NCBI GenBank assembly: GCA_963816185.1 | Contig: CAWFJJ010000008.1 | Coordinates: forward strand, 224,001 to 288,000 | DNA: 64,000 bases | From: Thermoanaerobaculia bacterium | GTDB lineage: Bacteria > Acidobacteriota > Thermoanaerobaculia > UBA5066 | Direction of reading: 5' to 3' | Notes under the pieces: model-generated | Told to the model about the DNA's origin: nothing | The model's database searches: none | What the model saw: the letters and a program-made list of their open reading frames with translations, nothing else | In this document: piece by piece, positions 5,934 through 61,925 of the stretch | How positions within the stretch are numbered: the stretch's first letter is position 1 | Layout: every line of letters begins with the position of its first letter | Position numbers and translations under genes: made by a program

Positions 5934-6151
5934 GAGGAAACGATACGCCGTGCTGAAGAAGCGGGGCGAGTGAGTGACTGCCCACAACGGCTCGGCCTTG
6001 AACGCATTGTCGAGAATCGAGAGCGGGAGGGCTTCTAACCGCGCCACCCGCCTCTTTTGCAATAAGCCGAGAGAAGTTCCGCCCTCTATCTGCGCTAGGC
6101 TTGTCGGTGCCTAGATAGGGATTCACAACAATCCCCGCTGAGCGGCCTGAC

Positions 6152-7665: not shown

Positions 7666-7721
7666 CGGCCACCTCCGCGGGGCTGCCTCATCATACGGTC
7701 GCCGGATCTCGCGGGGAAAGG

Positions 7722-11349: not shown

Positions 11350-11352
11350 CCT

Positions 11353-12258: not shown

Positions 12259-12317
12259 CCGCTCTCCTTAGTCCTTGCATCGTACCGAAATCCCGGCGCC
12301 GTATAGTCTGCAAGGTC

Positions 12318-13787: not shown

Positions 13788-13812
13788 CTGGCGCGCCGCT
13801 CTCTCCAGACTC

Positions 13813-14301: not shown

Positions 14302-14348
14302 GGAATCTCCTCCCTTTCCGGTTAGTACGGAGATTCTATCTCAGCGGA

Positions 14349-37497: not shown

Positions 37498-38844
37498 TCA
37501 GGCGGCATGCGCGTGCACCGGGAGAGCCACGGGACTCGTGGCGTTCGCCCTCCGTTTAAGAGTCGCGACGAGGACGTGCGCCCACAGGAGCAGGCCTACC
37601 GTCGCGAAAATGCCGGTCGTCCCGACGAGCCTGTAAAGAGGCAGGCCGCCCCAGCCGAGGGCGACGGGGATCTGCAGCGCGCGGACCAAGGCCGCGGCGG
37701 CCACGAAGGCGAGGGCGAGACGTGCTTCGCGCGGGCGCACGAGCGCGCGACCCGTGAACGCCGGGACCACGCGCAGGCTCATGCCGACGATCAGGAGCGT
37801 GAGAAACCCGATCGTGTAGACGTGTCGCGCGCCGTCCCACACGAACTTGTGAACAGAGGCCCCCGAGAGCTCGCCGATCGAAGCCGCGATGGAGATCGCC
37901 GCGAAGAGCCCGAGAAAGGCGAACGGCGCGCGCAGCGAGAGCGCTCCGGGAGCCTTGGCGAACGGCGCGAGGATTCGGCCGGCGGCGAGGAACACGAGAA
38001 CCGCCGCAGAGACGAGCAGCGTTCCGCCGAGCGCGAAGCCGCGTGAGACGGGCGGCGTCAGGCCGGGAATCCAAGCGGCCGCGAGGAGGAGGACGCCTGC
38101 CCCCTGCAGCGCCGCGACGGGCCGCGCGCTCTTCGCAGTGGGTCGGTGCAGCCCCAGGAACGCGGGGACCATCCGCGAGGCGAAACCGAGTACGTACGAG
38201 AGAATGAAGCCGTAGAGCGCGATCGCGTAGAAGGGCTCGACGAGGCCGCCCGGGATCTCGGACTCCGCATGGCCCGCGAGGAAGAGCGACTGAGCGCCGG
38301 AGAGCACGACGGCGAGCGCGGCCCAGAGCGATCCGAAGAGGACGTGAAGGGAAAGAGGGTCGCCGAGGGAGCGGCGCGCGGCGAGAACGGGCAGAGCCCA
38401 GGCGAGGAACGCGAACACACCGGCGATCTCGAGCGTCCCCGAGAGAAGAGACAGGAATCGGCCCGCCGGCCAGGGCGCGAGCGGCTGTCCGAACGCGCGC
38501 AGCAGGGCGCCGCCGCCCACGCCGACGAGCACGGTGAAGAGCACCCGGTTGGACGGCGTTTTCGCTCCGAGGATGCGCGGAAGCGCGTGAAGCGCGACGC
38601 CGAAGATGAAGAGGCCGGCGAACCCGAGGAGCTGGACGTGCGCGTGAAGCTGAAGATGGGACACGAGAACCGTGCCTCCGGCGAAAGCCATCTGCCAGAT
38701 CGCCCAGCCGCCAGTCGAAACGCCGAGCGTGAGGGCGAGGGCGAGCGCGGTGAGGACGAAGGAGGGCAGGAGGTTGCGGGGGGGCGCGCTCGGGGCGTTC
38801 GACCCGCAAGCGCTGCAGCAAGGAGCGGTCTGAAGGGGGGCCAT
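37498..38844 (-). CDS. NnrS-like polytopic membrane protein
   Basis: H.QLHAHVQL.GF..LFI.G, GF..RM.PAF, RH..TIGF....I.GM..R..P; about 12 hydrophobic segments; GGAG SD. Confidence 0.7.
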   Translation of the reverse strand: MAPLQTAPCCSACGSNAPSAPPRNLLPSFVLTALALALTLGVSTGGWAIWQMAFAGGTVLVSHLQLHAHVQLLGFAGLFIFGVALHALPRILGAKTPSNRVLFTVLVGVGGGALLRAFGQPLAPWPAGRFLSLLSGTLEIAGVFAFLAWALPVLAARRSLGDPLSLHVLFGSLWAALAVVLSGAQSLFLAGHAESEIPGGLVEPFYAIALYGFILSYVLGFASRMVPAFLGLHRPTAKSARPVAALQGAGVLLLAAAWIPGLTPPVSRGFALGGTLLVSAAVLVFLAAGRILAPFAKAPGALSLRAPFAFLGLFAAISIAASIGELSGASVHKFVWDGARHVYTIGFLTLLIVGMSLRVVPAFTGRALVRPREARLALAFVAAAALVRALQIPVALGWGGLPLYRLVGTTGIFATVGLLLWAHVLVATLKRRANATSPVALPVHAHAA

Positions 38845-38888
38845 GTCTTTCTCCACGGCCAAATTAGGCGTCAAGGCGCGGGTCCGGT

Positions 38889-38902
38889 ATGACGGGCGTC
38901 AT
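38889..38902. promoter_or_regulatory. Crp/Fnr-type palindrome ATGAC-N4-GTCAT (box 1)
   Basis: ATGACGGGCGTCAT; minus-strand -10 TAATTT at 38866-38861. Confidence 0.7.
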
Positions 38903-38976
38903 TTCCGTGGGCTGAAGTCCCTGCATCATGGTTGCGCCGGCCATGGAGCACCATGCTTCAGCGCGGGAGGAGAACC

Positions 38977-40230
38977 TTGCTCAAGCCCGTCGAGCTCGAA
39001 ATCGAGCTCTTCTGCCGTGGGTTGCGCGTCGACCCTTCTTGCGAGGTGGATACCGACGGTCGCCGCATCTCGCGCACGCGCGCCGGCCTCGGGTCGGGCC
39101 TCGAGCTCGTCCTGCCGTCGCCGCGGAAGAAGATCTGGGTGAACGTGCCCGTCGTGGAGGCCTTCGCAGCGAAGTCGCCGTTCCTCCTGATGAAGACGGC
39201 GCGGGGCTACGTCGTTTGCGACTCTCGGCAAGGCGACCACTATCCCGTCGAGATCCCCGAGGAGCCCGCCTGGTACTCGTGGAAGACGTCGAGCGGCGTC
39301 GAGATGAGCCGTGTCGGAGTCCTGCAGGGCACGTACCTCGGGATCTACGTCTCGAACGCGTGTCTGTATTGGAACCTGCCGGCGTCTCCCGCGTGCGGCT
39401 TCTGCACGACGGGCCGCAACGTGGGCAAGGCCGAGGAGTCGAAGAAGAAGGTGGACGACGTGATCGAAGTCGCGAAGGCCGCGCGCGACGAGTCCGGCTC
39501 CATCTTCACGCATCTCAACACGGGCTATCACTTCGAGGACCGCGACGACCTCGAGGTCGTTCACGGCCTCAGGCAGTGCGAGCCGTTCGTGAAGCGGCTC
39601 CGCGCCGAGGTGGGCGGCTTCATCGGCGTCCAGGCCGTGCCGGTGCCGCGGCGCAAGTTCAACGAGTACGACGACCTGATCGCCGCCGGAACGGACCATT
39701 TCTCGTTCTGTTACGAATTCGAGGATCCCGCGTACTTCGCGAAGTTCTGCCCCGGTAAAGAGCTCACGCTGGGCCAAAAGGCGTTCTTCGAAGCGATGGA
39801 TTACACGGCGAAGAAGCTCGGGCCGGGGAAAGTCTCGGGCGAGATCATCGCGGGGCTCGAGCCTCTCGAGGCCACGAAGCGCGGTATCGACCGCATCGTG
39901 GATGCCGGGGCCTTTCCCACCGTCTGCATCTTCCGTCCCACCGTCGGCAGCGCGCTCGAGAGCGCCCCGCCACCCAAGGCGGACGAGATGCGCGAGGTCT
40001 TCACGCATCTCTGGAAGGCGGTGCAACGCGCCGGCCTCCCCGTCGGAATCCTCCCGGGCATCCAGGTCTCGCTCGTCGTCCAGCCGGAAGAAGCGGCCGA
40101 CCTCGTGCCGCCGACGTTCTCCTCGCGTCTCTACGAGACGAAGCTCGCGGCGCTGCGCACGTTCGCGAAACCTTACGTCGCGTGGAAGCTCCGCCCGAAG
40201 AGCGGACGGGTACGGGCGGCGACCGCGTAG
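38977..40230 (+). CDS. Radical SAM protein with atypical CX10CX2C motif
   Basis: CLYWNLPASPACGFC, IIAGLEPLE, PTVCIFRP..GS.L; TTG start after GGAGG. Confidence 0.8.
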   Translation: MLKPVELEIELFCRGLRVDPSCEVDTDGRRISRTRAGLGSGLELVLPSPRKKIWVNVPVVEAFAAKSPFLLMKTARGYVVCDSRQGDHYPVEIPEEPAWYSWKTSSGVEMSRVGVLQGTYLGIYVSNACLYWNLPASPACGFCTTGRNVGKAEESKKKVDDVIEVAKAARDESGSIFTHLNTGYHFEDRDDLEVVHGLRQCEPFVKRLRAEVGGFIGVQAVPVPRRKFNEYDDLIAAGTDHFSFCYEFEDPAYFAKFCPGKELTLGQKAFFEAMDYTAKKLGPGKVSGEIIAGLEPLEATKRGIDRIVDAGAFPTVCIFRPTVGSALESAPPPKADEMREVFTHLWKAVQRAGLPVGILPGIQVSLVVQPEEAADLVPPTFSSRLYETKLAALRTFAKPYVAWKLRPKSGRVRAATA

Positions 40231-40261
40231 AGGGCACCGTGGTCGGAAACACGCGCCCCCT

Positions 40262-40275
40262 ATGACCTTCGTCAT
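40262..40275. promoter_or_regulatory. Crp/Fnr-type palindrome ATGAC-N4-GTCAT (box 2)
   Basis: ATGACCTTCGTCAT centred 41.5 bp upstream of ATG 40310. Confidence 0.75.
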
Positions 40276-40309
40276 GACGGGCCGCCGCGTGGGAGAACAA
40301 CCTTCGACG

Positions 40310-42340
40310 ATGGCGATCTCCGTCCGGTTCCCCGACCTCGAACACTGGAAAGCGCAGGTCAAGTGTCAGGCCGGCTGTCCCGTCGCGACGGACGCCGGGC
40401 GATATGTCCAGCTCATCGCCGAAGGGCGGGACGAGGATGCCTTTCTCGTCGCGCGCGCGCCGAATCCGTTCGCGTCGGTGTGCGGGCGCGTTTGCGCCGC
40501 CCCGTGCGAAGACGCGTGCCGCCGCGGCTCGATCGACGCGCCCATCTCGATCCGGGCGCTGAAGCGCTTCGTCACGGAGCAGTACGGCGTCGAATCGCGT
40601 CGGCCGGACACGCAGGAAAGGCTGTTCAGAGAGCCGATCCTGGAGGGAAACCGCTATTCGGGTCACCTGCCGATTCACCCTTCGGGCGCAAAGAAGATTT
40701 TCTTAGAAGGGAATACAGACGAGGGCGCCGCGGGTGCACCGGCCGATCTCGCGAGCGCCGCCGAGCGCATTTCGCCCTCTTCACCTTCTAAGAAATCTCC
40801 CGGTTCTTCCGGGCGACCGAAGGTCGCCGTCGTTGGAGCCGGTCCGGCCGGCCTTTCCGCCGCGCACGACCTCGCGCTCCTCGGCTACAGCGTGACCGTC
40901 TTCGAGGCGGCGGGGGAGCCCGGCGGAATGATGCGCTTCGGCATCCCGGAGTACCGCCTCCCGCGGACGCTCATCAAGGCCGAGATCGACCGGATCCTCT
41001 CGTTCGGCGTCGCGCTCCGGCTTGGAACGCCTCTGACTCCGGACTTCGGCCTGACGGAGCTCAAGGCCGAAGGCTACGAGGCCGTCTTCCTTTCCGTCGG
41101 CGTGTCGAAGGGGCGCGACCTGCAGGTCCCGGGCGTCGAGCTGGACGGCGTCGTGAAAGCGGTCGACTACCTCCTGAACGTCAACCACGGCTTCCGCATG
41201 GACCTCGGGCGGCGCGTCGTCGTCATCGGCGGCGGGTTCGTCGCGTTCGACGCGGCGCGCACGGCGCTCCGCCTGGGGCGCGAAGCCGACGTCGACGCGC
41301 TCGAAGAGAAAGCCGGCGAAGCCGACGCGCGCCTCAAGGAAGCGCTCGACTCGGCGCGGGCCGCGCTGCGCGGCGGCGCGGCCGAGGTAACACTCGTCTC
41401 TCTCGAGAACTTCGAGGAGATGCCGGTTCTCCGGACGACGCAGGGCCACGAGGAGTTCGAGGAGGCGAAAAAGGAAGGCGTTCGCTTCCATCCGCGCCGC
41501 GGCCCGCAGCGCTTCCTCGGCAGCGGGCGCCTGACCGCCGTCGAGCTGAAGAGGGTGACGTCCGTCTTCGACGAGCGCGGGCGTTTCGCCCCCGCGTACG
41601 ACGAGTCGGACGTCGTGACGCTCGAAGCGGACGCCTGCGTCCTCGCGATCGGCCAGAAGGCGGACCTTTCGTTCCTGAAGCAGGGAGACGGCATCGCGCT
41701 CACGCCGGCCGGCACGATCGCGGTCGACAAGACGACGCTCGCGACGTCGGCTCCGGGGATCTTCGCGGGCGGCGACGTCGCCTTCGGCCCGCGCAACCTC
41801 ATCGAGGCGGTCGCGAACGGCAAGCGCGCCGCGCGCTCGATCCACGAGCACCTCGCGAAGGAGAAGGCCTCGATCCGCGCCACGCTCGAGATCGAGAAGA
41901 TCCCGACGTCGTCGTACCGGATGATCGCGGGCTTCGAGATCCTCGACCGCGAGGCGCCGCCGACGCTGGACCTCGGGCGGCGCACGGGCATCGCCGAAGT
42001 CGAGACGGGCTACGCGGCACTCGAGGCGCGCGCGCAGGCCGCGCGCTGCCTCATCTGCCACGTGCAGACGATCTACGACCCGGAGGCCTGCGTCCTTTGC
42101 AACCGCTGCGTCGACGTCTGCCCGGAGTACTGCCTCGCGCTCGTGCCGCTCGAGGAGCTGGACCTCCCGGAGGACGAGCGCGCGGCCCTCGCGGCGCGCG
42201 CCGGAGGAAACGGTTTGCCGCTGTCCGCGATGGTCAAGGACGACGACCGCTGCATCCGCTGCGGCCTGTGCGCGATCAGGTGCCCGACGGACGCGATGAC
42301 GATGGAGAAGTTCTCCATCACGGAGGGATTCGATGAGTGA
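40310..42340 (+). CDS. GltD/NfnB-like NAD(P)H-dependent flavoprotein with N-terminal Fe-S and C-terminal 2x[4Fe-4S] domain
   Basis: CQAGCP, CGRVCAAPCE..C, GAGPAG, GIPEYRLP, GGGFVA.D, FAGGD, RCL.C, two CxxCxxCxxxCP. Confidence 0.9.
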   Translation: MAISVRFPDLEHWKAQVKCQAGCPVATDAGRYVQLIAEGRDEDAFLVARAPNPFASVCGRVCAAPCEDACRRGSIDAPISIRALKRFVTEQYGVESRRPDTQERLFREPILEGNRYSGHLPIHPSGAKKIFLEGNTDEGAAGAPADLASAAERISPSSPSKKSPGSSGRPKVAVVGAGPAGLSAAHDLALLGYSVTVFEAAGEPGGMMRFGIPEYRLPRTLIKAEIDRILSFGVALRLGTPLTPDFGLTELKAEGYEAVFLSVGVSKGRDLQVPGVELDGVVKAVDYLLNVNHGFRMDLGRRVVVIGGGFVAFDAARTALRLGREADVDALEEKAGEADARLKEALDSARAALRGGAAEVTLVSLENFEEMPVLRTTQGHEEFEEAKKEGVRFHPRRGPQRFLGSGRLTAVELKRVTSVFDERGRFAPAYDESDVVTLEADACVLAIGQKADLSFLKQGDGIALTPAGTIAVDKTTLATSAPGIFAGGDVAFGPRNLIEAVANGKRAARSIHEHLAKEKASIRATLEIEKIPTSSYRMIAGFEILDREAPPTLDLGRRTGIAEVETGYAALEARAQAARCLICHVQTIYDPEACVLCNRCVDVCPEYCLALVPLEELDLPEDERAALAARAGGNGLPLSAMVKDDDRCIRCGLCAIRCPTDAMTMEKFSITEGFDE

Positions 42341-42839
42341 GCCGAAGAGCCGGCGCGAGATCTTCCTGAAGCTGGGGTTCGGGGCAGGCGTGGCGGCCCT
42401 CGGAGCCCAGGCAGTCGCTTCATTGCGGTCGCTCGTGCCAAACGTGTCCTACGACGCGCCGACGACCGTAAAGATCGGCCTTCCGAACGACTTTCCCGAT
42501 GGGATGAAGTTTCTGCCGGACGAGAGGCTCTTCGTGTTCCGCGAAGGAAGAACGCTTCACGCGATTTCCGCGGTGTGCACGCACCTCGGCTGCACGGTCC
42601 GCGCGGAAGCGTTGTCCTCGCCGGAGACGAAAGACGTCAGCGGCAAGCCGCTGCGCCTCACGCACCGTTTCCTCTGTCCGTGTCACGGCTCGAAGTACGC
42701 CGGGGACGGCACGAACGTGGCCGGTCCCGCGCCGAAGCCGCTCGCCTGGTACCACCTCTCGCTTTCACCCGACGACGGACAGCTCGTCGTCGACCTCGCG
42801 CAGCCCGTGGAGCGCGACTTCCGCTTCACGCTGGCCTGA
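42333..42839 (+). CDS. Rieske 2Fe-2S protein (Tat-anchored)
   Basis: SRREIFLK, CTHLGC, CPCHGS. Confidence 0.95.
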   Translation: MSEPKSRREIFLKLGFGAGVAALGAQAVASLRSLVPNVSYDAPTTVKIGLPNDFPDGMKFLPDERLFVFREGRTLHAISAVCTHLGCTVRAEALSSPETKDVSGKPLRLTHRFLCPCHGSKYAGDGTNVAGPAPKPLAWYHLSLSPDDGQLVVDLAQPVERDFRFTLA

Positions 42840-42853
42840 AGGCCCGAGGAAAC

Positions 42854-44203
42854 ATGAGCGCAAAACCCGAAAAGCCCGGTTCTCCGCCCGCGAGCGCGCC
42901 CGGAGTCCATTCGAAGCCGCTGTGGAGCGTCAGGCCGGCCTCCGACCGCGAGGCGGGCGACGCCGTCGTGTCGAACTTCCTGCTCCACTGGTTTCCGGCG
43001 AAGACCTACAAGCCGTCGCTCGACTGGAACTATTCGTTCTGGCTCGGCACGGCCTCGGCCGCGCTGCTCCTGCTCCTGACCCTGTCGGGGCTGCCGCTCC
43101 TCTTTCTGTACGTCCCGTCCGTCGAGCGCGCGTACGGGTCCGTGAAGGACATCGAGTACGTCACGACGTTCGGCTTCTGGATCCGCGCGGTGCACCGCCT
43201 CTCCGCGCATCTCATGGTGGCCGTCGTCTTCCTCCACATGGTGCGCGTCTTCCTCACGGGCGCTTACAAGAACGGCCGTGGACAAGGGCAGAAGAGGGAG
43301 CAGAACTGGGTCCTCGGCGTGGGCCTGCTCCTCACTACGCTCCTCCTCTCCTTCACGGGCTATCTCCTCCCGTGGGACCAGCTCGCCTACTGGGCGATCA
43401 CCGTAGGGACGAACATCGCGTCCTCGATCCCGTTCGCCGGGCCGGCGATCCGCGAACTGCTCCTCGGCGGGCGCGCGATCGACCAGCCCACGCTCATCCG
43501 CTTCTACGTCCTGCACGTCCTCGCGCTCCCGGCCGCGATCGGCGTCCTCTTCCTGTACCACATGTGGCGCGTGCGCAAGGACGGCGGTCTCGCGCGGGCA
43601 GACAGGGCGACGCTCCTGCCGGAAAGGGCCGCCGAGGCTCCGTCGAAGACGAAGACCTACACGCTCCTCGGCATCGCGCGCGGGACGTCGCCGGCGGTGA
43701 AGGCTTCCACGCTCGAGCGAGAGGATACGACGGTCAACTCCATCCCCGACCTCACGAGGCGCATCGCGATCGTCGTCCTCGCGATTTTCGCGATCGTGAG
43801 CATCGCGTCGGTCTTCACCCACGCGCCGCTCGAGGAGCCGGCGAACGCGCTCGTGACGCCGAACCCGGCGAAGGCACCCTGGTACTTCCTGTGGCTCCAG
43901 GAGATCGTGACCGACACGACCGTGAAGATCGGCTCTTTCACGATCAACGGGGCGTTCCTCGGCGGCGTGCTCCTGCCGGGGGCTCTCGTCCTCCTGATGA
44001 CGGTCTGGCCGTGGCTCGAAAAGAGCGCGCCCGGCTCGGCCGGCGTGTGGTTCCCGAAGGACCGGCGGACGCAAAACGCGGTCTTCCTCGTGCTCGTCGC
44101 GATCGTCCTCGTGCTCACCTTCATCGGCACGTTCTGCCGCGGGCCGTACTGGCACCTCTACTGGCCGTGGCAGGCGTGGCCAGAGCTGCCGACGAGGATC
44201 TGA
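42854..44203 (+). CDS. Cytochrome b (b6-like domain fused to subunit-IV-like domain)
   Basis: Heme His pairs RAVH..FLH and VLH..LYH, FTGYLLPWDQ.AYWA, PNPAKAPWYF. Confidence 0.92.
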   Translation: MSAKPEKPGSPPASAPGVHSKPLWSVRPASDREAGDAVVSNFLLHWFPAKTYKPSLDWNYSFWLGTASAALLLLLTLSGLPLLFLYVPSVERAYGSVKDIEYVTTFGFWIRAVHRLSAHLMVAVVFLHMVRVFLTGAYKNGRGQGQKREQNWVLGVGLLLTTLLLSFTGYLLPWDQLAYWAITVGTNIASSIPFAGPAIRELLLGGRAIDQPTLIRFYVLHVLALPAAIGVLFLYHMWRVRKDGGLARADRATLLPERAAEAPSKTKTYTLLGIARGTSPAVKASTLEREDTTVNSIPDLTRRIAIVVLAIFAIVSIASVFTHAPLEEPANALVTPNPAKAPWYFLWLQEIVTDTTVKIGSFTINGAFLGGVLLPGALVLLMTVWPWLEKSAPGSAGVWFPKDRRTQNAVFLVLVAIVLVLTFIGTFCRGPYWHLYWPWQAWPELPTRI

Positions 44204-44204
44204 C

Positions 44205-45452
44205 ATGGAAAAACGCTCCGACTCTCCTTACCCGAAGATCGACCGGCCGATCCTGGCGGCCGTCGGCATCCTGCTCGTCGTCTCCTGCGCGCTCTTCGCG
44301 TGGAGCGACCGCGCGCACGACTGGCGCTATTACCAGGCCGCGTTCAAGGCCCAGGTCACGGCGAAGCTCGGAGCCGAGAAGGCGAAGGAGGTGCACGGGG
44401 GCCTCCAGCAGATCTGGGTCGCCGATCTCAGGCGCGCCGACCGCTGCGTCACCTGCCACCAGGCCGCGCTCTGGAAAGGGTTCGAGACGGCCGACGAGCC
44501 GCTGCGCACGCACCCGCCGGAGCCGTTCCGGAACCACCCCATCGAGAAATACGGCTGTACGTCCTGCCACGGCGGGCAGGGCTATGCCGTGGATACCGAA
44601 GAGGCGCACGGGCCCATCGAGCACTGGGAAGAGCCGGTGCTCGGCCGCTCACTCGGAGAAGCGTATTCGCTCGTGGACGACAAGAACGCCGCGATGCAGA
44701 TGAACTGCAACGTGTGCCACCGGTACGACCGCGAGACGAAGGGCGCCGACGCGATCAACCTCGCCAAGAAGCTCGTCGTGGAGAAGGGCTGCCGCGCGTG
44801 TCACGTCGTGAACGGGCGCGGCGGGTCGATCGGACCGGACCTGACGAACGTGGGCGAGAAGGCGGCCGAGCAATACGAATACGGCCGTCTTTCGGGGCAG
44901 AAGACGTCGTTCGCGTGGCACGTCGCGCATTTCAAGGATCCCCGTGCCCTCGTGATCGACACCGTCATGCCGAACTTCCACTTCTCGACGAAAGAGGCCC
45001 AGGCCCTCGCGATGCTCGTTCTCTCGTGGCGGCGCGCGCCGGTGCCGGCCGACTACAGGCCCGGCACGCCCCATACCGATCCGCAGACGGCGGCCGAAGT
45101 CGAAGCCGAAGAGAGGATGAAGACCGGCCCGGGCGCGTGGTTCGTCAAGACGGGCTGTTTCGTCTGCCATTCGATCCAGGCCCTCGGTGTGAAGAGCCCG
45201 GCGCAGATCGGTCCGGACCTGTCCAACGCCGTCGAGGACGTGCAGTCCCGGTTCGGCCGGACCGTCGACGACTTCCTGAGAGAGCCTACGGGAACGATGG
45301 CGGTCGTCCTTTCTCGCCAGATCATCCTGACGCCCGAAGATAAAGCCGTAGCCGTCGGAAAGCTCCGCGAGGCTTTCGCGGAATACCAGAAGCAGAAGGC
45401 CGAAGAAGCGAAGGGCAGGAAGCCCGCCGCCTCGGTCGCTTCATCCCATTGA
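44205..45452 (+). CDS. Membrane-anchored pentaheme cytochrome c
   Basis: CVTCH, CTSCH, CNVCH, CRACH, CFVCH; N-terminal TM helix. Confidence 0.92.
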   Translation: MEKRSDSPYPKIDRPILAAVGILLVVSCALFAWSDRAHDWRYYQAAFKAQVTAKLGAEKAKEVHGGLQQIWVADLRRADRCVTCHQAALWKGFETADEPLRTHPPEPFRNHPIEKYGCTSCHGGQGYAVDTEEAHGPIEHWEEPVLGRSLGEAYSLVDDKNAAMQMNCNVCHRYDRETKGADAINLAKKLVVEKGCRACHVVNGRGGSIGPDLTNVGEKAAEQYEYGRLSGQKTSFAWHVAHFKDPRALVIDTVMPNFHFSTKEAQALAMLVLSWRRAPVPADYRPGTPHTDPQTAAEVEAEERMKTGPGAWFVKTGCFVCHSIQALGVKSPAQIGPDLSNAVEDVQSRFGRTVDDFLREPTGTMAVVLSRQIILTPEDKAVAVGKLREAFAEYQKQKAEEAKGRKPAASVASSH

Positions 45453-45468
45453 GTCAAGGAGGAAGGGA

Positions 45469-47340
45469 ATGTTAACGACACGGAAGAAGTGGATGAGCTG
45501 GGGAGGGGCCGTCGCGATCGCTGCGGCCGGCCTCCTTGCGTGGCACTGCGCGCCCTCGGCGCCGAAGGGCGCGAAGAAAGGGCCCGCGAACGCGTCGGAC
45601 CAGTCGGTCGCGGCGATGAAGACCTACATCGCCCCGGGGGACCTCGACGAGTACTACTTGTTCTCGTCCGGCGGGCACTCGGGACAGGTGTACGTCTACG
45701 GCGTGCCGTCCATGCGCCATCTCTCGACGATCCCCGTCTTCACGCCGTATCCGGGAATCGGCTATGGGTTCGACGACGAATCGAAGGCGATGCTCGGCGG
45801 CCTGACGTGGGGCGACGCCCACCACCCGGCTCTGTCGGAGACGAACGGCGACTACGACGGCCGCTGGCTCTTCATCAACGACATGAACGGCCGCCTCGCG
45901 CGAATCGACCTCAGGGATTTCAAGACGAAGCAGATCTACGGGCCGGTCCCGAACGTGTCGGGCAACCACTCCGGCTCGTTCGTCACCCCGAACAGCGAGT
46001 ACGCCATGATGGGCTCGCGCTTTTCGATCCCGATCCCGAAGGGAAAGTACCTGCCCCTCGACAAGTACGCGACGGAATGGAAGGGCGTGCTCGCGGCCAT
46101 CAAGATCGACCCGAAGAGCGGCGAGATGTCGCTCGGCTGGCAGATCCTGATGCCGCCCTTCGACTACGACCTCGGCGACGCCGGCAAGAAGGTCTCCGAC
46201 GGCTGGATGTTCTGGACCTGCTACAACGCAGAGCGTGCCACCGGGAAGCTCGAGGTCACGGCCTCGCAGCGCGACCGTGACTACATCGCGGCCGTCGACT
46301 GGCACGCGGCCCAGAAGGCGATCGACGAAGGCAAGGGCGACCTCATCGGCGGCGTGAAGGTTCTCGATCCGAAGAAGGTGCCCGGGATCGTGTGGCTCAT
46401 GCCCTGCGGCAAGTCGCCCCACGGCGTGGACGTCTCGCCCGACGGCAAGTACGTCGTCGGCTCGGGCAAACTCCAGGGCGTCACGACCGTCTTCAACTTC
46501 GAGAAAGTCCAGACGGCGATCCGCAACAAGGACTTCACCGGCGACGAGGACGGCATCCCGGTCCTGAAGTACGAGTCCATCAAGGATGCCGAGGTGCCCG
46601 TCGGCCTCGGACCGCTCCACACGCAGTTCGGACCCGATGGCTACGCGTACACATCCCTCTTCCTCGACAGCGCGATCGCGAAGTGGAAGCTCGGGACGTG
46701 GGAGGTCGTGGACAAGGTCCCGATGTCCTACAACATCGGCCACCTCTGTGCGGCCGAGGGTGACACCTGCTCGCCCAAGGGCAAGTACCTCGTCGGCCTG
46801 AACAAGCTCTCGCACGGCCGGCACCTCTCGGTCGGGCCCGGGCAGCCCGAGTCGTCGCAGCTCGTGGACATCTCCGAGGAGAAGATGAAGCTGATCTACG
46901 ACGCCTTCACCGAGCCGGAGCCGCACTACGCCCAGATGATCGAGGCGAAGAAGCTCCACCCGATCGAGGTCTATCCGAAGGAGGAGAGCAAGAACCCGCT
47001 GGCCATCTGGGACGTCAAGGACGCGGGCGTGACGCGGCAAGGCCCGAACGTCACGGCGAAAGTCGTGCTCGTGCGCTCCACGATCACGCCGCAGGCCATC
47101 GAGGTGAACCAGGGCGACACGGTCAGGATCGCGCTGACGAACATCGAGCAGACGACCGACGAGCTGCACGGCTTCGGCCTGCTCGACTACAACATCAACA
47201 TCGTGTGCGATCCGGGCGAGACGAAGGTCGTCACGTTCAAGGCCGACAAGGCCGGCGTCTATCCCTATTACTGCACGAACTTCTGCTCCGCGCTCCACCA
47301 GGAGATGCAGGGCTACCTGATCGTCAAGCCGAAGGCGTAG
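45469..47340 (+). CDS. nosZ: Clade II (Sec-type) nitrous-oxide reductase
   Basis: SGGHSGQ, CuZ His motifs DAHH, GNH, SPHG, PLH, GHL, EPH; CuA HGF...CTNFCSALHQEM; no twin-arginine motif. Confidence 0.96.
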   Translation: MLTTRKKWMSWGGAVAIAAAGLLAWHCAPSAPKGAKKGPANASDQSVAAMKTYIAPGDLDEYYLFSSGGHSGQVYVYGVPSMRHLSTIPVFTPYPGIGYGFDDESKAMLGGLTWGDAHHPALSETNGDYDGRWLFINDMNGRLARIDLRDFKTKQIYGPVPNVSGNHSGSFVTPNSEYAMMGSRFSIPIPKGKYLPLDKYATEWKGVLAAIKIDPKSGEMSLGWQILMPPFDYDLGDAGKKVSDGWMFWTCYNAERATGKLEVTASQRDRDYIAAVDWHAAQKAIDEGKGDLIGGVKVLDPKKVPGIVWLMPCGKSPHGVDVSPDGKYVVGSGKLQGVTTVFNFEKVQTAIRNKDFTGDEDGIPVLKYESIKDAEVPVGLGPLHTQFGPDGYAYTSLFLDSAIAKWKLGTWEVVDKVPMSYNIGHLCAAEGDTCSPKGKYLVGLNKLSHGRHLSVGPGQPESSQLVDISEEKMKLIYDAFTEPEPHYAQMIEAKKLHPIEVYPKEESKNPLAIWDVKDAGVTRQGPNVTAKVVLVRSTITPQAIEVNQGDTVRIALTNIEQTTDELHGFGLLDYNINIVCDPGETKVVTFKADKAGVYPYYCTNFCSALHQEMQGYLIVKPKA

Positions 47341-47345
47341 GGGAA

Positions 47346-47990
47346 ATGAAAGCCATCTTCGAAAAGAGCAACCGTTTTCTCGAACTCCCCCTGGACCTCG
47401 GTCCGCGCGGCCTCCTCGTCGTGGCCGTGCTCCTCCTCGTGCCCTCGTATCTCTTTCCGCTCTGGAACCTGACGATGTTCGCGCCGCAGTACCGGGACGG
47501 CCTGAGGATGCACATCTACAGCTGGAAGCTCGAGGGCGGGAACGCCGGCCACGACATCACGGAGATCAACGTCCTGAACCATTACATCGGTATGCGCGAC
47601 CTCTCGCCCGCCGACTTCACCGAGTTCAAGTGGATCCCGTTCGTCGTCGGTATCGTGGGCCTCCTGATGCTGCGGACGGCCGTCCTCGGGAAGATGTCGC
47701 ATCTCGTCGACAACGTCGTCCTGTATCTCTACTTCGGGGCGTTCTCTCTTTGGTCGTTCGGGTTCAAGCTGTGGACTTACGGCCACAACCTCTCGCCGAC
47801 CGCGGCGGTCAAGATCGCGCCGTTCATGCCGCCGATGTTCGGGTACAGGAAGCTCGCGAACTTCGAGATCTATTCGTATCCGGGCCCCGGGTCGTACGCG
47901 CTCGGCCTCGTCGCGGTCGTCCTCGTTGCGGCGATGGCGCTCGCCTGGCGAGAGGGCAGGCGCGCGTCCGCGCGCACGCCTGGATCCTGA
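47346..47990 (+). CDS. nosB: NosB membrane protein of clade II nos clusters
   Basis: PLW....APQY..GL, EIN.LNHYIGM, YGHNL.P.A, PP.FG...LANF...SYP. Confidence 0.88.
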   Translation: MKAIFEKSNRFLELPLDLGPRGLLVVAVLLLVPSYLFPLWNLTMFAPQYRDGLRMHIYSWKLEGGNAGHDITEINVLNHYIGMRDLSPADFTEFKWIPFVVGIVGLLMLRTAVLGKMSHLVDNVVLYLYFGAFSLWSFGFKLWTYGHNLSPTAAVKIAPFMPPMFGYRKLANFEIYSYPGPGSYALGLVAVVLVAAMALAWREGRRASARTPGS

Positions 47991-49348
47991 TGATCGCCCT
48001 GCCCCTCGTCCTCCTCCTGCAGATCACCGGCGACATGGCGCCCGTGACGCCGGGAGGGCTCGAGGGACGTCCGCCCGCGGCGGAGGCCTCCCCGTTGCAG
48101 GTCCGGGTGGACCGAGCGGCGCCGGGAGAGACGGTCGTCGTCTTGCCCGGGTCTTTCGTGGGCGATCTCGTTCTCGACCGTCCCATTCATCTCGTGGGAG
48201 TGGGGCGGCCACGGCTCGTCGGATCCGGGAAGGGGAGCGTCGTGCGCGTGCGCGCGGACGGCGTGACTCTCGAGGGCTTCGACATCGACGGCGTGAAGGG
48301 CGGGGACCTCGCTAGGGACTCCTCGGGCGTCCACATCGCGGCCCGGAACGTCGTCGTGCGCGACTGCCGCATCTCGGACGCGCTCTTCGGCATCTACCTG
48401 CGGCAGGCGGACGGCGCGCGCGTGGAGAGCTGCCGCATCCGGGGAATCCACGGACGGGATCCGGGAGAGAAAGGCTCCGGCCTCCACGTCTGGGACACGA
48501 AAGGGTTCACGTTCGAGGACAACGTGATCGAGGACGTGCGCGACGGTTTCTACATCCAGTCCTCCTCGGGCGGGACGATCGTCCGCAACACGGCACGCGA
48601 CCTCCGGTACGGCCTCCACTACATGTTCTCGGACGACAACACTTTCGAGGAGAACACCTTCGAGAACGGCGCGGCCGGCACGGCGCTCATGTACAGCAAG
48701 CGCATCGTCTTCCGCCGGAACCGGTTTCTGAAGAACCGCGGCTTCGCGTCGGTGGGGCTGCTCTTCAAGACCTGCGACGACGTCCTCGCCGAGGACAACC
48801 TCATCGCCGACAACGCGCGCGGGATCTTTCTCGAAGGCTCGTACCGCAACGTCTTCCGGAGGAACGTCGTCGCCCTCTCCGACGCCGCGATCGTCCTCTA
48901 CGACTCCTGCGGCCAGAACCGTTTCGAGGGCAACTCGTTCGTCGGAAACCTTGCGCCGCTCGCTCTCGTGGGACACCGCACGGACACCGTCTTCGACGGC
49001 AACTACTGGTCGGACAACGACGAGCCGGACCTCGACGGCGACGGCATCTCGGACCGGCCTTTCCCTCTTTCCAACGTCTTCGACCACCTGCGCGGAAACC
49101 TGACCGCTGCCGACCTCTTTTCGCGAAGCCTCGCGGCGCGGGCCCTCGGAGCGGCTGAGCGCGGATTCCCCGTGCTGAGAGCGGTCGAGGTCTTCGACCG
49201 CACTCCCCTTGCCCATCCGCCCGCGCTCCCTCGCGTTCCGCATCAGGACCGTCCGGCGGCTTCCCACGGTGCGTTCGCGCTCGCGATGTCGGGCCTTTCG
49301 CTGCTCGGCGGGGGCGGCGTGCTTTTCGCCGGGCGGAGGCGCGCGTGA
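47990..49348 (+). CDS. nosD: N2O reductase maturation protein NosD
   Basis: CASH beta-helix, RDG.Y, LRYGLHYMFSD.N, GNYWSD. Confidence 0.92.
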   Translation: MIALPLVLLLQITGDMAPVTPGGLEGRPPAAEASPLQVRVDRAAPGETVVVLPGSFVGDLVLDRPIHLVGVGRPRLVGSGKGSVVRVRADGVTLEGFDIDGVKGGDLARDSSGVHIAARNVVVRDCRISDALFGIYLRQADGARVESCRIRGIHGRDPGEKGSGLHVWDTKGFTFEDNVIEDVRDGFYIQSSSGGTIVRNTARDLRYGLHYMFSDDNTFEENTFENGAAGTALMYSKRIVFRRNRFLKNRGFASVGLLFKTCDDVLAEDNLIADNARGIFLEGSYRNVFRRNVVALSDAAIVLYDSCGQNRFEGNSFVGNLAPLALVGHRTDTVFDGNYWSDNDEPDLDGDGISDRPFPLSNVFDHLRGNLTAADLFSRSLAARALGAAERGFPVLRAVEVFDRTPLAHPPALPRVPHQDRPAASHGAFALAMSGLSLLGGGGVLFAGRRRA

Positions 49349-50085
49349 TCCGCTTCGAATCGTTCTCGAAGAGCTTCGGCGCGCAGCGCGCCGTCTCCGA
49401 CCTGACCGTCGCGATCGAGCCCGGCGAGATCGTGGCGCTCCTGGGGCCGAACGGCTCGGGAAAGACGACCTCGCTGAAGGCCGCTGCGGGCCTCATCCAC
49501 CCGACGAAGGGCAGAGTCGTCGTGGGAGAGGCAGGGCTGCCGGCGACCGTGCCTGCGGCGCGCCGCACACTCTCCTTCCTTCCGCAGAAAGTCACTTTTC
49601 CCGATTCCCTGACGGGACGCGAGGTGCTGGATTTCTATCGCGCGCTGCGCGGCGTGGATTCCCGCCGCGTGGACGAGGTGCTGAAGATGGCCTCGTTGAA
49701 CGGGGCCGCGGGGCGCGCCGTGGGCACGTACTCCGGCGGCATGACGCAGCGGCTCGGGCTCGCGGTCGCTGCGCTGCCCGACACGGCGGTCCTCCTCCTC
49801 GACGAGCCGACCGCCGCCCTGGACCCCGACGGGCTCTGCGCATTCTATGGCCTGGCCGTCGCGCGCCGTCGCGAGGGAAAGACCGTTCTGTTCACGACGC
49901 ATCAGCTCGGGGACGTGGAGCGCCTCGCGGACCGCGTCGGCGTCCTCGTGGAGGGAAAGCTCGCCGCCCTCCTGACGCGCCGCGAGCTCGAAGACTGGCT
50001 CGGCGCACACGGCTTCCCGCTCGTACAGACCGGGACGAGCCCTCTCGAAAGTCTTTACCGCGAGCTCGTGGGAGGTCACGCGTGA
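49345..50085 (+). CDS. nosF: ABC ATPase NosF
   Basis: GPNGSGKTT, YSGGM.QR, LDEPT; position after nosD. Confidence 0.88.
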   Translation: MIRFESFSKSFGAQRAVSDLTVAIEPGEIVALLGPNGSGKTTSLKAAAGLIHPTKGRVVVGEAGLPATVPAARRTLSFLPQKVTFPDSLTGREVLDFYRALRGVDSRRVDEVLKMASLNGAAGRAVGTYSGGMTQRLGLAVAALPDTAVLLLDEPTAALDPDGLCAFYGLAVARRREGKTVLFTTHQLGDVERLADRVGVLVEGKLAALLTRRELEDWLGAHGFPLVQTGTSPLESLYRELVGGHA

Positions 50086-50540
50086 GGCTTCGCGGCGGGC
50101 TCGTGGTCCTCGCGCTCGCTCTCTTTGCGGCCTGCGCGCGCGGACCTGTTGCGCCCGCCGCGCTCGACACGAAGAACGAGAGCTGCGGCTGGTGCCGCAT
50201 GGCGGTCTCGGACGCTCGTTTCGCCGCGCAGCTCGTGTCGCCGTCCGAGGAGCCCCGCTTTTTCGACGACGTCGGCTGTCTCACGACGTTCCTGAAGTCC
50301 GGCGGCGCGCCGGCGAAGGGCCAGATCGCGTACGTGGCCGACCACCGGACGAAGGCCTGGGTGCGCGCGTCGACCGCGGTCTACACGAAGAAGCCGGGCC
50401 TCGAAACGCCGATGGGATCGGGCCTCGTCGCGCACGCCGATGCGGCCTCCCGGGATGCGGATCCGGATGCCGCCGGAGGAGCTCCGGCGAGTGCCCGCGA
50501 CGTCTTCGGGCCGAACGGTGTCCCGGACGGTGGCCGATGA
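50082..50540 (+). CDS. nosL: Copper chaperone lipoprotein NosL
   Basis: FAAC lipobox, CGWCRM, FDDVGC, TPMG. Confidence 0.9.
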   Translation: MRLRGGLVVLALALFAACARGPVAPAALDTKNESCGWCRMAVSDARFAAQLVSPSEEPRFFDDVGCLTTFLKSGGAPAKGQIAYVADHRTKAWVRASTAVYTKKPGLETPMGSGLVAHADAASRDADPDAAGGAPASARDVFGPNGVPDGGR

Positions 50541-51394
50541 ATGGCTCGCTCGGCTCGCTCGGCTCGTTCGGCCCCTTCGCCCTCTGCGCGCGGCAGGAGC
50601 TCCTTCTCGCGGTGCGTTCGCGCTGGACGCAGATTTTCGCGGCCGTCTTCGCGGCGCTCGCGCTCGGCGTGGCCTCCTCGGGGTACGTGCTCTCCGGAGG
50701 TCACGGCGTGCAGGATTTCGCGCGCACGACGGCCTCCCTCGTCGAGCTGGTCCTGCTCCTCGTGCCCCTGACGGCCCTTCTGATCGGGGTCCTGTCGCTC
50801 GCGCCCGAGCGAGGCGCGGCGGAGCTCCTCTTCTCGCAGCCCGTCTCCCGGCGCGCGATCCTCCTCGGGAAGACGGCCGGCCTTTTCGTCGCGCTTTCGG
50901 CGGCGCAGGCCCTCGGGTTCGGCTCGGCCGGCCTCGTCATCTTCTCGCAGGCGGGCGGCGAGGGCCTTCCGGGCTTCGGCCTTCTCGTTCTCGGGTCATT
51001 CGTCCTCACGGCCGTCTTCCTCGGGCTGGCGGCGCTCGTCTCCGCCGGTGCCGTGGGACGCCGGACGCGCGCCCTCGCGATCGCGCTCGTCCTGTGGTTC
51101 TTTGCAGTCGTCCTCTTCGACGTGGCCGCGCTCGGAGCGGCGTCCCTCCTTCCGTCCGGCCCGGCGTCGCGCGTCCTCATCGTCTCGGTGCTCGTGAACC
51201 CAGCGGACGCGGTCCGGACCGGCGCGCTTCTCGGCCTCGAGGGAAGCGGCGCGTTCGGCGCGGCGTCCCTCGCGCTCCTCAGGTTCACGAAGGGCCCCAC
51301 GGGCGCCGGAATCCTGCTCGTCTCGTCCCTGCTTCTCTGGCTGGTGGTGCCGGCGCTCCTCGCCGCGCGGAGGCTCGGGAAAGCCGACCTCTGA
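50537..51394 (+). CDS. nosY: ABC permease NosY
   Basis: R.TASL..LVL..VPL, ELLFSQPVSR, NP.D..R. Confidence 0.9.
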   Translation: MNGSLGSLGSFGPFALCARQELLLAVRSRWTQIFAAVFAALALGVASSGYVLSGGHGVQDFARTTASLVELVLLLVPLTALLIGVLSLAPERGAAELLFSQPVSRRAILLGKTAGLFVALSAAQALGFGSAGLVIFSQAGGEGLPGFGLLVLGSFVLTAVFLGLAALVSAGAVGRRTRALAIALVLWFFAVVLFDVAALGAASLLPSGPASRVLIVSVLVNPADAVRTGALLGLEGSGAFGAASLALLRFTKGPTGAGILLVSSLLLWLVVPALLAARRLGKADL

Positions 51395-51434
51395 GATTTC
51401 CGGAATTCTCCGTGAGAGAGCCCCGGCGAATGGC

Positions 51435-52007
51435 TCACTCCCCGCCCGAGGTCGTCTCGACGTCCTCCGCGGGGTAGCGCAATGTCCCGTCAGCCATGAC
51501 GCTCACACCGGGAGTGAGCGTCGCCGGGATGACTTGGCCAGGTCCCATGATGTGCTCGACACGCGTTCCGCCGGCCAACAGGTAATCCGTGATGATCCGG
51601 CGATGACAGCGCCACCACACTGCTTCGGCGCACATGATCGCGCCCCGATGATCGCGCGTGAGCGCGCACAAGTCGTCCAGACCGGCGCGGAATTCGTCAG
51701 TCTCCGCGTAGTCGGCGTAATTCCTGAACGCCGCGACGCGCCAGTAGATGTTGAGCGAGGGCGACGCGCCTTTGCGATGATGACGTCGGCCGCCGAGCGC
51801 GTGCAGATGCCGGTAGCCGATGCCATCGGCGGCGAGGGAGTCCGGGAGCGTCTCTTCATTGAACTGCGGCGCCGCTCGCGAGCGCGGGATCGAGCGCACG
51901 TCCACGAGCAGCGTGACGTCCACCTGCCGTAAGAGCGACACGAAGTCTGCGAGGCTCCGCGTGGAGTGGCCGATGGTGAAGACGATATCGCCCGCCAGGC
52001 GATTCAC
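51435..52007 (-). CDS. DUF488 family protein
   Basis: FTIGHSTR, LVDVR..P.S...PQF, LGG.R, MCAE..WWRCHR. Confidence 0.9.
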   Translation of the reverse strand: MNRLAGDIVFTIGHSTRSLADFVSLLRQVDVTLLVDVRSIPRSRAAPQFNEETLPDSLAADGIGYRHLHALGGRRHHRKGASPSLNIYWRVAAFRNYADYAETDEFRAGLDDLCALTRDHRGAIMCAEAVWWRCHRRIITDYLLAGGTRVEHIMGPGQVIPATLTPGVSVMADGTLRYPAEDVETTSGGE

Positions 52008-52492
52008 TTCCGGGGTGTTCGCTTCTCTTGCGGGGCCGGCTGGTAGATGCCGGGCGGGGCGCGGAAGGGGATCGCGAGCCGGTTCCAGGCGTTGATCGCC
52101 ACGACCACCCAGTTGAGGTCGACGAGCTCCTTTTCGGAGAAGTGCTGCCGCGCCTCCTCGTACACCTCGTCCGGCACGTGCGTTTCGGAGACCCGCGTGA
52201 CGGACTCGGTCCAGGCCAGGGCGGCCCGTTCACGCGGGGAGTAGAAGGAGGATTCTCGCCAGGCATCGAGCAGATAGAGGCGCTGCTCTGTCTCGCCGGC
52301 GGCCCGGGCGTCCTTCGTGTGCATGTCGATGCAATAGGCGCAGCCGTTGATCTGGGACGCACGCAGCTTGACGAGCTCGATCAGAGAGCGCGAAAGCCCG
52401 CAGCGGTGGAGGTAGCTCTCGAGAGCCAACATCGTTTCGTACGCCTCCGGAGCCGTCGCATGAGCATCGATCCTTGGCTGCGTGTGGTCCAT
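52004..52492 (-). CDS. AhpD/carboxymuconolactone decarboxylase family protein
   Basis: ELVKLRASQINGCAYCIDMH, ERAALAWTE, INAWNR. Confidence 0.92.
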   Translation of the reverse strand: MDHTQPRIDAHATAPEAYETMLALESYLHRCGLSRSLIELVKLRASQINGCAYCIDMHTKDARAAGETEQRLYLLDAWRESSFYSPRERAALAWTESVTRVSETHVPDEVYEEARQHFSEKELVDLNWVVVAINAWNRLAIPFRAPPGIYQPAPQEKRTPRK

Positions 52493-61670: not shown

Positions 61671-61925
61671 ATGGCCGACTCCCCTCCCCCCGACGTGATC
61701 CTCGACGTACGGCCCGACCTGGCACGCGGCGAAGAGCCGCTAACGAAGATCCTGACGGCGGCTCGCGCCATCCAGCCGGGAGGACGGCTCGTCGTCCAGG
61801 CGCCGTTCGAGCCTTTTCCCCTCTACGGCGTCCTCGCAAAGCAGGGCTTCTCGAGCGCGTCGGAAAACCTCGGCTCCGAAGGATTCCGAGTCACGTTTCA
61901 TCGTCAGAAGACGGCCGAGCCGTGA
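61671..61925 (+). CDS. DUF2249 domain protein
   Basis: LDVRP....GEEP...I, APFEP.PLY.VL...GF. Confidence 0.85.
   Translation: MADSPPPDVILDVRPDLARGEEPLTKILTAARAIQPGGRLVVQAPFEPFPLYGVLAKQGFSSASENLGSEGFRVTFHRQKTAEP

Follow-up and report, generated by a model that had tools for sequence, protein, structure and literature searches.

A clade II nos operon with a flavoprotein gene locked to its Rieske/cytochrome b genes, and a proposed coupling of N2O respiration to NAD(H)

The 64,000-nucleotide stretch of DNA analysed here (the window) comes from contig C8 of a draft genome of 5.09 Mb (94.9% complete). The window, whose G+C content is 60-71%, carries an operon for nitrous oxide (N2O) respiration in which clade II nosZ and its accessory genes are preceded by genes for an iron-sulfur (Fe-S) flavoprotein, a Rieske protein, a cytochrome b and a pentahaem cytochrome c. 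The fixed gene order in related loci and the monophyly of the nos-linked flavoproteins support the dedication of this four-gene module to clade II NosZ, and a cytoplasmic FAD/Fe-S protein is thus genetically locked to a Rieske/cytochrome b complex. The ten genes lie close-packed on the + strand at 40310-51394 in the order flavoprotein, Rieske, cytochrome b, pentahaem cytochrome c, nosZ-B-D-F-L-Y, and open reading frames (ORFs), Pfam/NCBIfam profiles and conserved order confirm them where an earlier note on this DNA had placed the operon. The flavoprotein and Rieske genes overlap by 8 bp, the next gaps are 14, 1, 16 and 5 bp, and the remaining four junctions overlap after start refinement of nosD (47990), nosL (50082) and nosY (50537). 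These overlaps and short gaps indicate that the ten genes are translationally coupled, as far as their spacing can tell. Chance assembly of the operon is excluded because its gene order is conserved in related loci.

A scan for the flavoprotein, with one genome per species, returned 333 relatives, of which the best 80 (69-86% identity) were kept. These came from Thermoanaerobaculia, Vicinamibacteria, Holophagales, Anaeromyxobacteraceae, Myxococcaceae and Binatia, most of them from the first two classes, and the nearest relatives of the nos locus would place the host in Thermoanaerobaculia (Acidobacteriota). The earlier note had called for a synteny survey of clade II nosZ; run here and counting only loci that reach far enough downstream, it found the gene order fixed in every related locus that was long enough (counts in Table 1). 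The full ten-gene order was also present in three single-contig complete genomes of Anaeromyxobacteraceae (G340, G310 and G327), the family of the L085 genome, where a 74-79% identical flavoprotein was found in 17 of 61 genomes and a 44% homologue in one. Among 20 further, remoter loci, five flavoproteins (51-66% identity) again head the series Rieske, cytochrome b, pentahaem c and nosZBDF(L)Y. The phylum was also sampled evenly (301 genomes); 69 of these genomes had a flavoprotein of the same architecture and 35 had NosZ. The module occurred in 13 of these 35, with the flavoprotein 3-5 kb 5' of NosZ on the same contig, and these were exactly the genomes with a NosZ at least 62% identical to that of the window. 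In genome G246, of the same genus, NosZ is absent at the threshold used and an 88%-identical flavoprotein is represented only by a 117-amino-acid (aa) fragment, which probably reflects a broken assembly. In one locus (G043:C8:39015-40543) the nos-linked flavoprotein is read in two pieces and contains an in-frame TAA; of the 36 NosZ matches listed from the phylum sample, 11 are interrupted by one or two stops in frame. Such stops may be assembly errors in long-read metagenome-assembled genomes or signs of decaying genes.

A tree of 95 flavoproteins unites the 78 that are nos-linked in a single clade (support 0.981), which is nested among flavoproteins of a type linked to octahaem cytochromes c. 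The nos-linked module thus has a single origin within a wider family of flavoprotein-bearing Rieske/cytochrome b complexes and, as the tree suggests, has travelled with nos genes across phyla since then. The octahaem type accounts for 13 of the 20 remoter loci (39-50% identity), which encode a flavoprotein, Rieske, split cytochrome b6/subunit IV, octahaem c and often a monohaem c, with nos genes absent. The flavoprotein therefore lacks specificity for NosZ.

The host genome itself encodes two further operons of this general kind. The first, a second flavoprotein module (L097, G000:C25:264000-283500, minus strand 10184-16986), encodes a flavoprotein 50% identical to that of the window, Rieske (CPCHGSRF), split b6, subunit IV with APWY, a 675-aa cytochrome c with 8 CXXCH and a monohaem c, followed by a histidine kinase and a response regulator; no terminal reductase was found beside it. 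The other, a third Rieske/cytochrome b operon (L134, G000:C1:103000-119000, plus strand 5584-12826), encodes a 149-aa polyferredoxin, a HEAT-repeat protein, Rieske, b6 with a haem-cn Cys (WCAGG) and subunit IV, and ends with a 1048-aa cytochrome c bearing 8 CXXCH.

The reductase at the end of the proposed chain is of the Sec-dependent type, scoring 896.8 bits with TIGR04246 (cut-off 625) and 417.7 bits with the twin-arginine (Tat) type model TIGR04244 (cut-off 625). Its N-terminus, MLTTRKKWMSWGG, has no RR, its CuA motif reads CTNFCSALHQEM, and Pfam/NCBIfam profiles detect no fused cytochrome c domain. NosB and NosL match no Pfam/NCBIfam family and were identified by conserved order in related loci; the NosB call is one of position and conservation only, as a family model for NosB does not exist. 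With no twin-arginine signal, nosB right after nosZ, and nosDFYL present, the operon has the marks of clade II. No nosR, nosH or nosX lies within it and Fer4_5 (NosR/NosH/NapH) has no match anywhere in the 94.9%-complete genome, in agreement with the earlier note, which had listed nosR, nosX and nosGH as missing from the operon; two ApbE genes are encoded, both on other contigs.

The clade II system of Wolinella succinogenes, reportedly described by Hein et al. in 2017, is said to use NosGH, NosC1/C2, NosB and a housekeeping Rieske/cytochrome bc complex. The window shares with it a Sec-type NosZ, nosB directly 3', nosDFYL, the lack of nosR/nosX and a menaquinol route via Rieske/cytochrome b, but it has no NosG/NosH, encodes its Rieske/cytochrome b within the operon together with a flavoprotein, and has a NosZ without a fused cytochrome c. 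The NosR of clade I, also an Fe-S flavoprotein, is proposed in passages of PMC13685413 to keep the enzyme active. This likeness, together with the failure to find any NosR/NosH-type protein in the genome, would fit a module that replaces NosR, in which cytoplasmic NAD(P)H supplies low-potential electrons that keep CuZ active and not the bulk respiratory flux. We consider this improbable: the full quinol-oxidising set (Rieske, four-His cytochrome b, subunit-IV part) is present, sister modules with the same flavoprotein serve an octahaem c without nos genes in the 13 loci above and once in the host, and the module-less acidobacterial nos clusters are also without NosR, carrying azurin or small cytochromes c.

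Profile searches recognised PF14691 (Fer4_20; 1.1e-16), PF07992 (Pyr_redox_2; 4.5e-33) and a C-terminal 4Fe-4S dicluster in the flavoprotein, a layout in which a two-cluster domain at the N-terminus is followed by Rossmann domains for FAD and NAD(H), which carry GxGxxG/A motifs for FAD and nucleotide, and then by a ferredoxin domain with 2x[4Fe-4S]. The protein has no predicted transmembrane helix and appears to be cytoplasmic and soluble. Seventeen cysteines (19, 23, 58, 62, 66, 70, 580, 583, 594, 597, 600, 604, 608, 648, 651, 654 and 658) are invariant in 62 sequences, a number sufficient for four [4Fe-4S] clusters. The best sequence matches among solved structures are to NfnA of NfnABC (9n5u, 3.3e-74), 9bov/9bp5, the NfnI large subunit, NfnB, GltD and DPD. 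An AlphaFold2 model, with a mean predicted local distance difference test (pLDDT) of 75.6, a predicted template modelling score (pTM) of 0.78 and a disordered linker at 126-166, has electron-bifurcating NfnABC as its top fold match (9bov_A; E 2.5e-32, probability 1.00, 720 aligned columns), and NfnI, NfnB and GltD also match. The protein falls below every curated NCBIfam cut-off (best PRK12771, 414.6 bits against 516; TIGR01316, 271 against 471.75) and is, by these scores, best described as a relative of the NfnB/GltD family outside any named equivalog.

The flavoprotein shares Fer4_20, Pyr_redox_2 and the FAD and nucleotide motifs with NfnB, NfnA of NfnABC and GltD, but differs from them in the extra C-terminal ferredoxin domain, in SLE for YRR, in an RCLxC segment that follows the FAD domain, and in its proposed partner, a membrane cytochrome b. 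The first substitution lies in VSLE..EEMP, which replaces the VYRR...EMPA of NfnABC proteins; VYRR binds the 2'-phosphate of NADPH, and Leu365 and Glu366 are invariant in the window's type. SLE, in which Glu366 does not vary, fits a preference for NADH under the usual Rossmann-fold rule. In HMMER alignments the RCLxC segment (Cys580/583; residues ~544-586, window 41938-42070) corresponds to the very start of NfnI and NfnB, and this part of the flavoprotein appears to be a circular permutation of the Nfn arrangement. The closest solved relatives (NfnABC, StnABC, NfnI) are all bifurcating, and the FAD might in the same way split electron pairs between the haem b route and a ferredoxin docking on the C-terminal domain, which would tie ferredoxin to N2O respiration. 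The extra 2x[4Fe-4S] domain suits this idea, as does the polyferredoxin that stands in the host's third Rieske/cytochrome b locus where the flavoprotein would be. The operon, however, has no ferredoxin gene or second flavoprotein subunit, and the four clusters are more simply seen as one membrane-to-FAD wire, as in the anammox models described in passages of PMC12954380, so we give such flavin-based bifurcation or confurcation only a small chance.

The earlier note had also called for AlphaFold-multimer models, and the pair of whole cytochrome b and flavoprotein residues 127-676 was predicted in three runs alongside three controls. The interface score ipSAE was 0.56, 0.50 and 0.34 (median 0.50) and the best of the three controls scored 0.00; partner pLDDT was at least 73 and run-to-run contact agreement at least 0%, and the output listed no interface. 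Of 157 solved complexes used for calibration 116 reached the mark, as did 2 of 215 mismatched pairs, and at an ipSAE of 0.60 or less lay 18 of the 157 solved complexes and both of the passing mismatches. The prediction is a mild plus for docking of the flavoprotein on cytochrome b, atop a strong genomic prior.

These results also bear on whether the flavoprotein gene is a mere neighbour encoding some unrelated cytoplasmic enzyme, for example a glutamate-synthase-like reductase. The protein lies below all curated cut-offs, leaving its exact family open, and two of the 20 remoter homologues (L113 and L116) stand alone, without cytochrome b genes. Yet the gene overlaps that of the Rieske protein, its place is fixed across several phyla, its product is 69-86% identical across classes and so conserved like the membrane subunits, paralogous modules share the layout, and the docking score, weak as it is, is clearly above the controls. 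We therefore regard simple adjacency as very improbable.

The Rieske protein has the cluster boxes CTH...CPCH and the twin-arginine motif of an exported Rieske domain; among 71 orthologues the RR motif is kept in 70 and CPCHGS.Y in 67. The cytochrome b has 7 predicted transmembrane helices, and its best solved relative is cytochrome b6 (1.5e-38). Its four haem ligands, His114/128 and His221/236, are invariant or nearly so in 61 sequences, and the 14 residues between the latter pair are the b6-type spacing. In place of the PEWY of bc1/b6f complexes it has APWY at 341, as do 62 of 63 orthologues, with the acidic residue gone and the P-W-Y frame kept. Its sole Cys is at 428, and in the alignment Trp63 falls on the haem-cn Cys of NIFYCLGG, a b6 motif, so that the CxGG for a covalent haem cn is lacking; motifs and alignment thus confirm the APWY, the His spacing and the missing haem-ci Cys that the earlier note had read. 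The segment after the inner-haem ligand, HMWRVRKDG, is b6-like, and no bc1-type quinone-site residues were recognised in it. No quinone-reducing site is apparent, because the haem-cn Cys is absent and this region is b6-like. The pentahaem cytochrome c has a transmembrane helix at 11-35 and keeps its five haem motifs in 58 of 59 orthologues. Judged by these motifs, the complex has the parts for quinol oxidation on the outside and for transfer through the pentahaem cytochrome to NosZ.

Compared with cytochrome b6f and the Firmicute-type b6c complex, the window's version is alike in its b6 best match, helix D His spacing of 14, subunit-IV-like C-terminal part and Tat-exported Rieske protein. It differs in having Trp63 for the haem-cn Cys35, APWY for PEWY, b6 and subunit IV fused, a pentahaem c where those complexes have cytochrome f or a dihaem c, and an added gene for a cytoplasmic flavoprotein. 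His45 (LLHWFPAK) is kept in 20 of 20 flavoprotein-linked cytochromes b. We considered it as a mark of flavoprotein-bearing complexes only and rejected the idea, as the C1 cytochrome b (L134), whose neighbour is a polyferredoxin, has this His too; it is not aligned in the host's two remaining cytochromes b (C29 and C24). In this small sample the alignments hint that His45 goes with a cytoplasmic Fe-S partner.

The closest functional parallel comes from anammox bacteria, for which we draw throughout on passages of PMC12954380. Two Rieske/cytochrome b complexes of Kuenenia stuttgartiensis (Kuste4569-4574 and Kustd1480-1485) hold a putative cytoplasmic NAD(P) oxidoreductase, and Kartal et al., cited there, proposed that quinol bifurcation in them drives NAD(P)+ reduction, a mechanism that is still a proposal. 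The Rieske potentials are +303 and +335 mV, high although the quinone is menaquinone, and are tied to a Ser/Tyr pair; AlphaFold3 models have four clusters leading from the membrane to FAD and an extra haem b between the cytochrome b monomers, with His43 (or His62) as predicted ligand; and the closest solved structure to the Kuste4570 flavoprotein is 9bp5 (PMC12954380).

The window resembles these complexes in several respects. One operon encodes an FAD/NAD(P)-binding protein with multiple [4Fe-4S] clusters, Rieske, b6-type cytochrome b and multihaem c and adjoins an N-oxide-converting enzyme, and the function is a proposal in both cases. The Ser/Tyr signature follows the second Rieske box (67 of 71 window orthologues), the quinone pathway leads to menaquinone, and His45 lies near the position of Kuenenia His43. 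The flavoproteins share their closest solved fold, 9bov/9bp5, which is the sole link, the proteins being otherwise compared by description from that paper; 9bp5 of the anammox models and our top match 9bov_A have identical sequences, and the earlier note's parallel with anammox bacteria was in this respect apt. The window differs in its terminal enzyme, which is NosZ and not an octahaem protein of the hydroxylamine oxidoreductase type, in its single pentahaem c, in a cytochrome b that is fused to subunit IV and without a haem-cn Cys, and in its hosts, which are Acidobacteriota and Myxococcota and not autotrophic Planctomycetes. The host genome encodes a futalosine route to menaquinone (two MqnA/D matches), and a high-potential Rieske protein would then be paired with a quinol of low potential, as in anammox. 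We found no flavoprotein-bearing complex in passages of the Nitrospina genome paper (PMC3578206).

We propose that the first four genes specify one respiratory complex built for NosZ. On its periplasmic side the Tat-exported Rieske protein and the quinol site of cytochrome b would take electrons from menaquinol, and the high-potential electron would pass through the membrane-anchored pentahaem c to the CuA of clade II NosZ and on to N2O. On the cytoplasmic side the soluble flavoprotein would sit on cytochrome b, with the inner haem b wired through four [4Fe-4S] clusters to FAD and then to the NAD(H) site. The second menaquinol electron would cross the membrane via the two b haems and reduce NAD+, as proposed for the anammox complexes, a step that would stand in for recycling at a quinone-reducing site. 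The relevant potentials are +1.35 V for N2O, -0.07 V for menaquinone and -0.32 V for NAD, and the very high potential of N2O would pay for the uphill NAD+ branch. The host genome encodes NuoF of complex I, through which NADH made by the complex could re-enter the chain and pump again. We infer the physical association, the exchange between flavoprotein and inner haem b, and the path and direction of the electrons. Flow from quinol to NAD+ is favoured because there is no clear quinone-reducing site, the high-potential Rieske signature is paired with menaquinol, and the span to N2O is large; this menaquinol bifurcation, with one electron to N2O and the other to NAD+, is a reading whose direction we draw by analogy and to which we give a little less than an even chance.

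The same parts could also work in reverse, the flavoprotein oxidising NAD(P)H and sending electrons along the Fe-S chain to the inner haem b and a quinone-reducing site, so that the complex would unite an NADH dehydrogenase and a quinol:cytochrome c reductase and act overall as an NADH:N2O oxidoreductase. The synteny and structural evidence for a flavoprotein-bearing complex fits this equally well, heterotrophs need to oxidise NADH, and the step from NADH (-320 mV, a textbook value) to haem b is downhill. The quinone-reducing site it needs is, however, doubtful in a cytochrome b with no haem-cn Cys and no recognisable bc1-type residues, the genome already has complex I, and in passages of PMC12954380 the authors hold that such a flow wastes much energy. 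We consider reverse flow unlikely, though it is the main alternative. The earlier note had offered both directions of electron flow: its dedicated module stands, its flavoprotein subunit has the weak support of the docking, and both directions are proposals.

Several observations weigh against menaquinol bifurcation by a complex of this kind. Support from the complex prediction is weak, with no contacts guaranteed to be common to the runs, and a scan of 38800-52100 gave 0 promoter-like sites and 7 terminator-like ones, where shuffled sequence led us to expect 7.0. The module is not required for N2O reduction generally: 22 of the 35 nosZ genomes in the phylum sample lack it and have a NosZ of 37-60% identity with no linked flavoprotein, only one of them (G263) having a flavoprotein homologue, on another contig. 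Twelve of these 22 loci were examined by tblastn and showed no Rieske or cytochrome b gene upstream; upstream of nosZ in the same 12, Pfam recognised azurin-type cupredoxins in 3, mono- or dihaem cytochromes c in 3 and SCO1 in 1. The NADH preference is read from one acidic residue, and this, like the prediction of Rieske potential from the Ser/Tyr pair, is a rule of thumb. Unlike the anammox cytochromes b modelled in the passages of PMC12954380, that of the window is without haem cn and the PEWY Glu, and His45 is found in the host's flavoprotein-less C1 cytochrome b. Finally, the hosts are probably heterotrophs with an NADH surplus, to which extra NADH would be less obviously useful than to autotrophic anammox bacteria.

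The drawing of such Fe-S, Rieske and cytochrome genes in nos clusters reportedly goes back to Sanford et al. in 2012. To our knowledge, a flavoprotein-bearing Rieske/cytochrome b design has been discussed so far for anammox bacteria only, and we know of no biological sink for N2O other than NosZ. For clade II nos clusters, Fe-S, Rieske, cyt-b and cyt-c appear as gene labels in figure legends of PMC11096178, PMC11237620 and PMC13122619, and passages of Dibrova et al. (PMC5600118) note that NAD(P)-binding Fe-S proteins adjoin cytochrome b genes "in many other cases". For clade II, the passages of a 2026 review (PMC13685413) name only NosGH and cytochromes. We found no text that calls the nos Fe-S gene an NAD(P)H flavoprotein or ties it to the anammox complexes; Sanford et al. 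2012, the Hein and Simon review and Kartal et al. 2013, which lay outside the texts covered, may do so. The word "uncharacterised" in the earlier note is thus to be qualified, as the genes have already been drawn in figures and such Fe-S proteins already noted beside cytochrome b genes.

In soil metagenomes an average of 16.1% of nosZ reads belong to clade II nosZ of Acidobacteriota, with Vicinamibacteria and Thermoanaerobaculia foremost (PMC13122619). Were the flavoprotein a working subunit, respiration of N2O would be coupled to cytoplasmic NAD(H), a link absent from current models of the nos electron chain and one that would bear on growth yield, on affinity and on which donors sustain N2O removal. 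The module would also offer a tractable model for flavoprotein-bearing Rieske/cytochrome b complexes, so far known, in the passages of PMC12954380, via anammox modelling and redox titrations. Anaeromyxobacteraceae include cultured N2O respirers, and the ten-gene cluster in complete genomes of this family would open the anammox "quinol to NAD(P)H" mechanism, a matter of long debate, to genetics and biochemistry. Were bifurcation real, the span from menaquinol to N2O would lift every second electron to NAD+ and the NADH would return via complex I, so that each electron would pump many more protons than in a normal Q cycle, and this would apply to a large share of the soil N2O sink; this prospect, which could be tested in Anaeromyxobacteraceae, is possible but rather doubtful.

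Table 1. Genes of the nos operon and its neighbourhood in the window, with conservation of the operon genes in related loci that reach far enough downstream
Feature	Position	Strand	Basis	Related loci
NnrS-family membrane protein	37498..38874	-	PF05940	
Variant radical-SAM protein	38932..40230	+	NF045502, 181 bits against cut-off 125	
Flavoprotein, NfnB/GltD-like, 676 aa	40310..42340	+	Pfam Fer4_20, Pyr_redox_2, C-terminal 4Fe-4S dicluster	
Rieske [2Fe-2S] protein, 168 aa, predicted twin-arginine signal/anchor	42333..42839	+	PF00355, SRREIFLK, CTH..CPCHGSKY	71/73; L040 shows Rieske on separate view, L066 has ~550 bp left
Cytochrome b, b6-like/subunit-IV-like fusion, 449 aa	42854..44203	+	Cytochrome_B and Cytochrom_B_C in one chain	68/68
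Pentahaem cytochrome c, 415 aa	44205..45452	+	Five CXXCH, Cytochrom_C domain, one N-terminal transmembrane helix	64/64
NosZ, clade II (Sec-dependent), 623 aa	45469..47340	+	TIGR04246	59/60 by ORF extraction; L038, the remaining one, shows NosZ otherwise, giving 60/60
NosB-like membrane protein, directly 3' of nosZ	47346..47990	+	Position conserved; three hydrophobic segments	50/52; two misses at contig ends
NosD	47990..49348	+	TIGR04247, 372.1 bits against cut-off 300	47/48; L081, the remaining one, shows NosD otherwise
NosF, ABC ATPase	49345..50085	+	PF00005; conserved position	
NosL-like lipoprotein	50082..50540	+	Conserved position; hydrophobic N-terminus then Cys	
NosY, ABC-2 permease	50537..51394	+	PF12679	40/40
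Quinol-type NO reductase, 763 aa	59291..61582	+	NorB cytochrome-c-like domain and COX1	
DUF2249 protein	61671..61925	+		

The nos operon lies in a small denitrification island, with the NnrS gene near its 5' side, divergent from the radical-SAM and nos genes, and the NO reductase gene 8 kb 3' of it. The NnrS family often accompanies denitrification genes. MarR and ClC channel genes come just before the NO reductase gene, and the DUF2249 gene follows it. An FNR/CRP-type box (TTGA-N6-TCAA) was looked for in the 300 bp 5' of the flavoprotein gene; it was present in 2 of 78 loci and not in the window, and the idea was dropped. The radical-SAM gene ends 79 bp 5' of the flavoprotein gene. Twenty of the 80 related loci have a homologue of it upstream of their flavoprotein gene, directly adjoining that gene on the same strand in 7 and on the opposite strand in 13, two of which have it several kb away.

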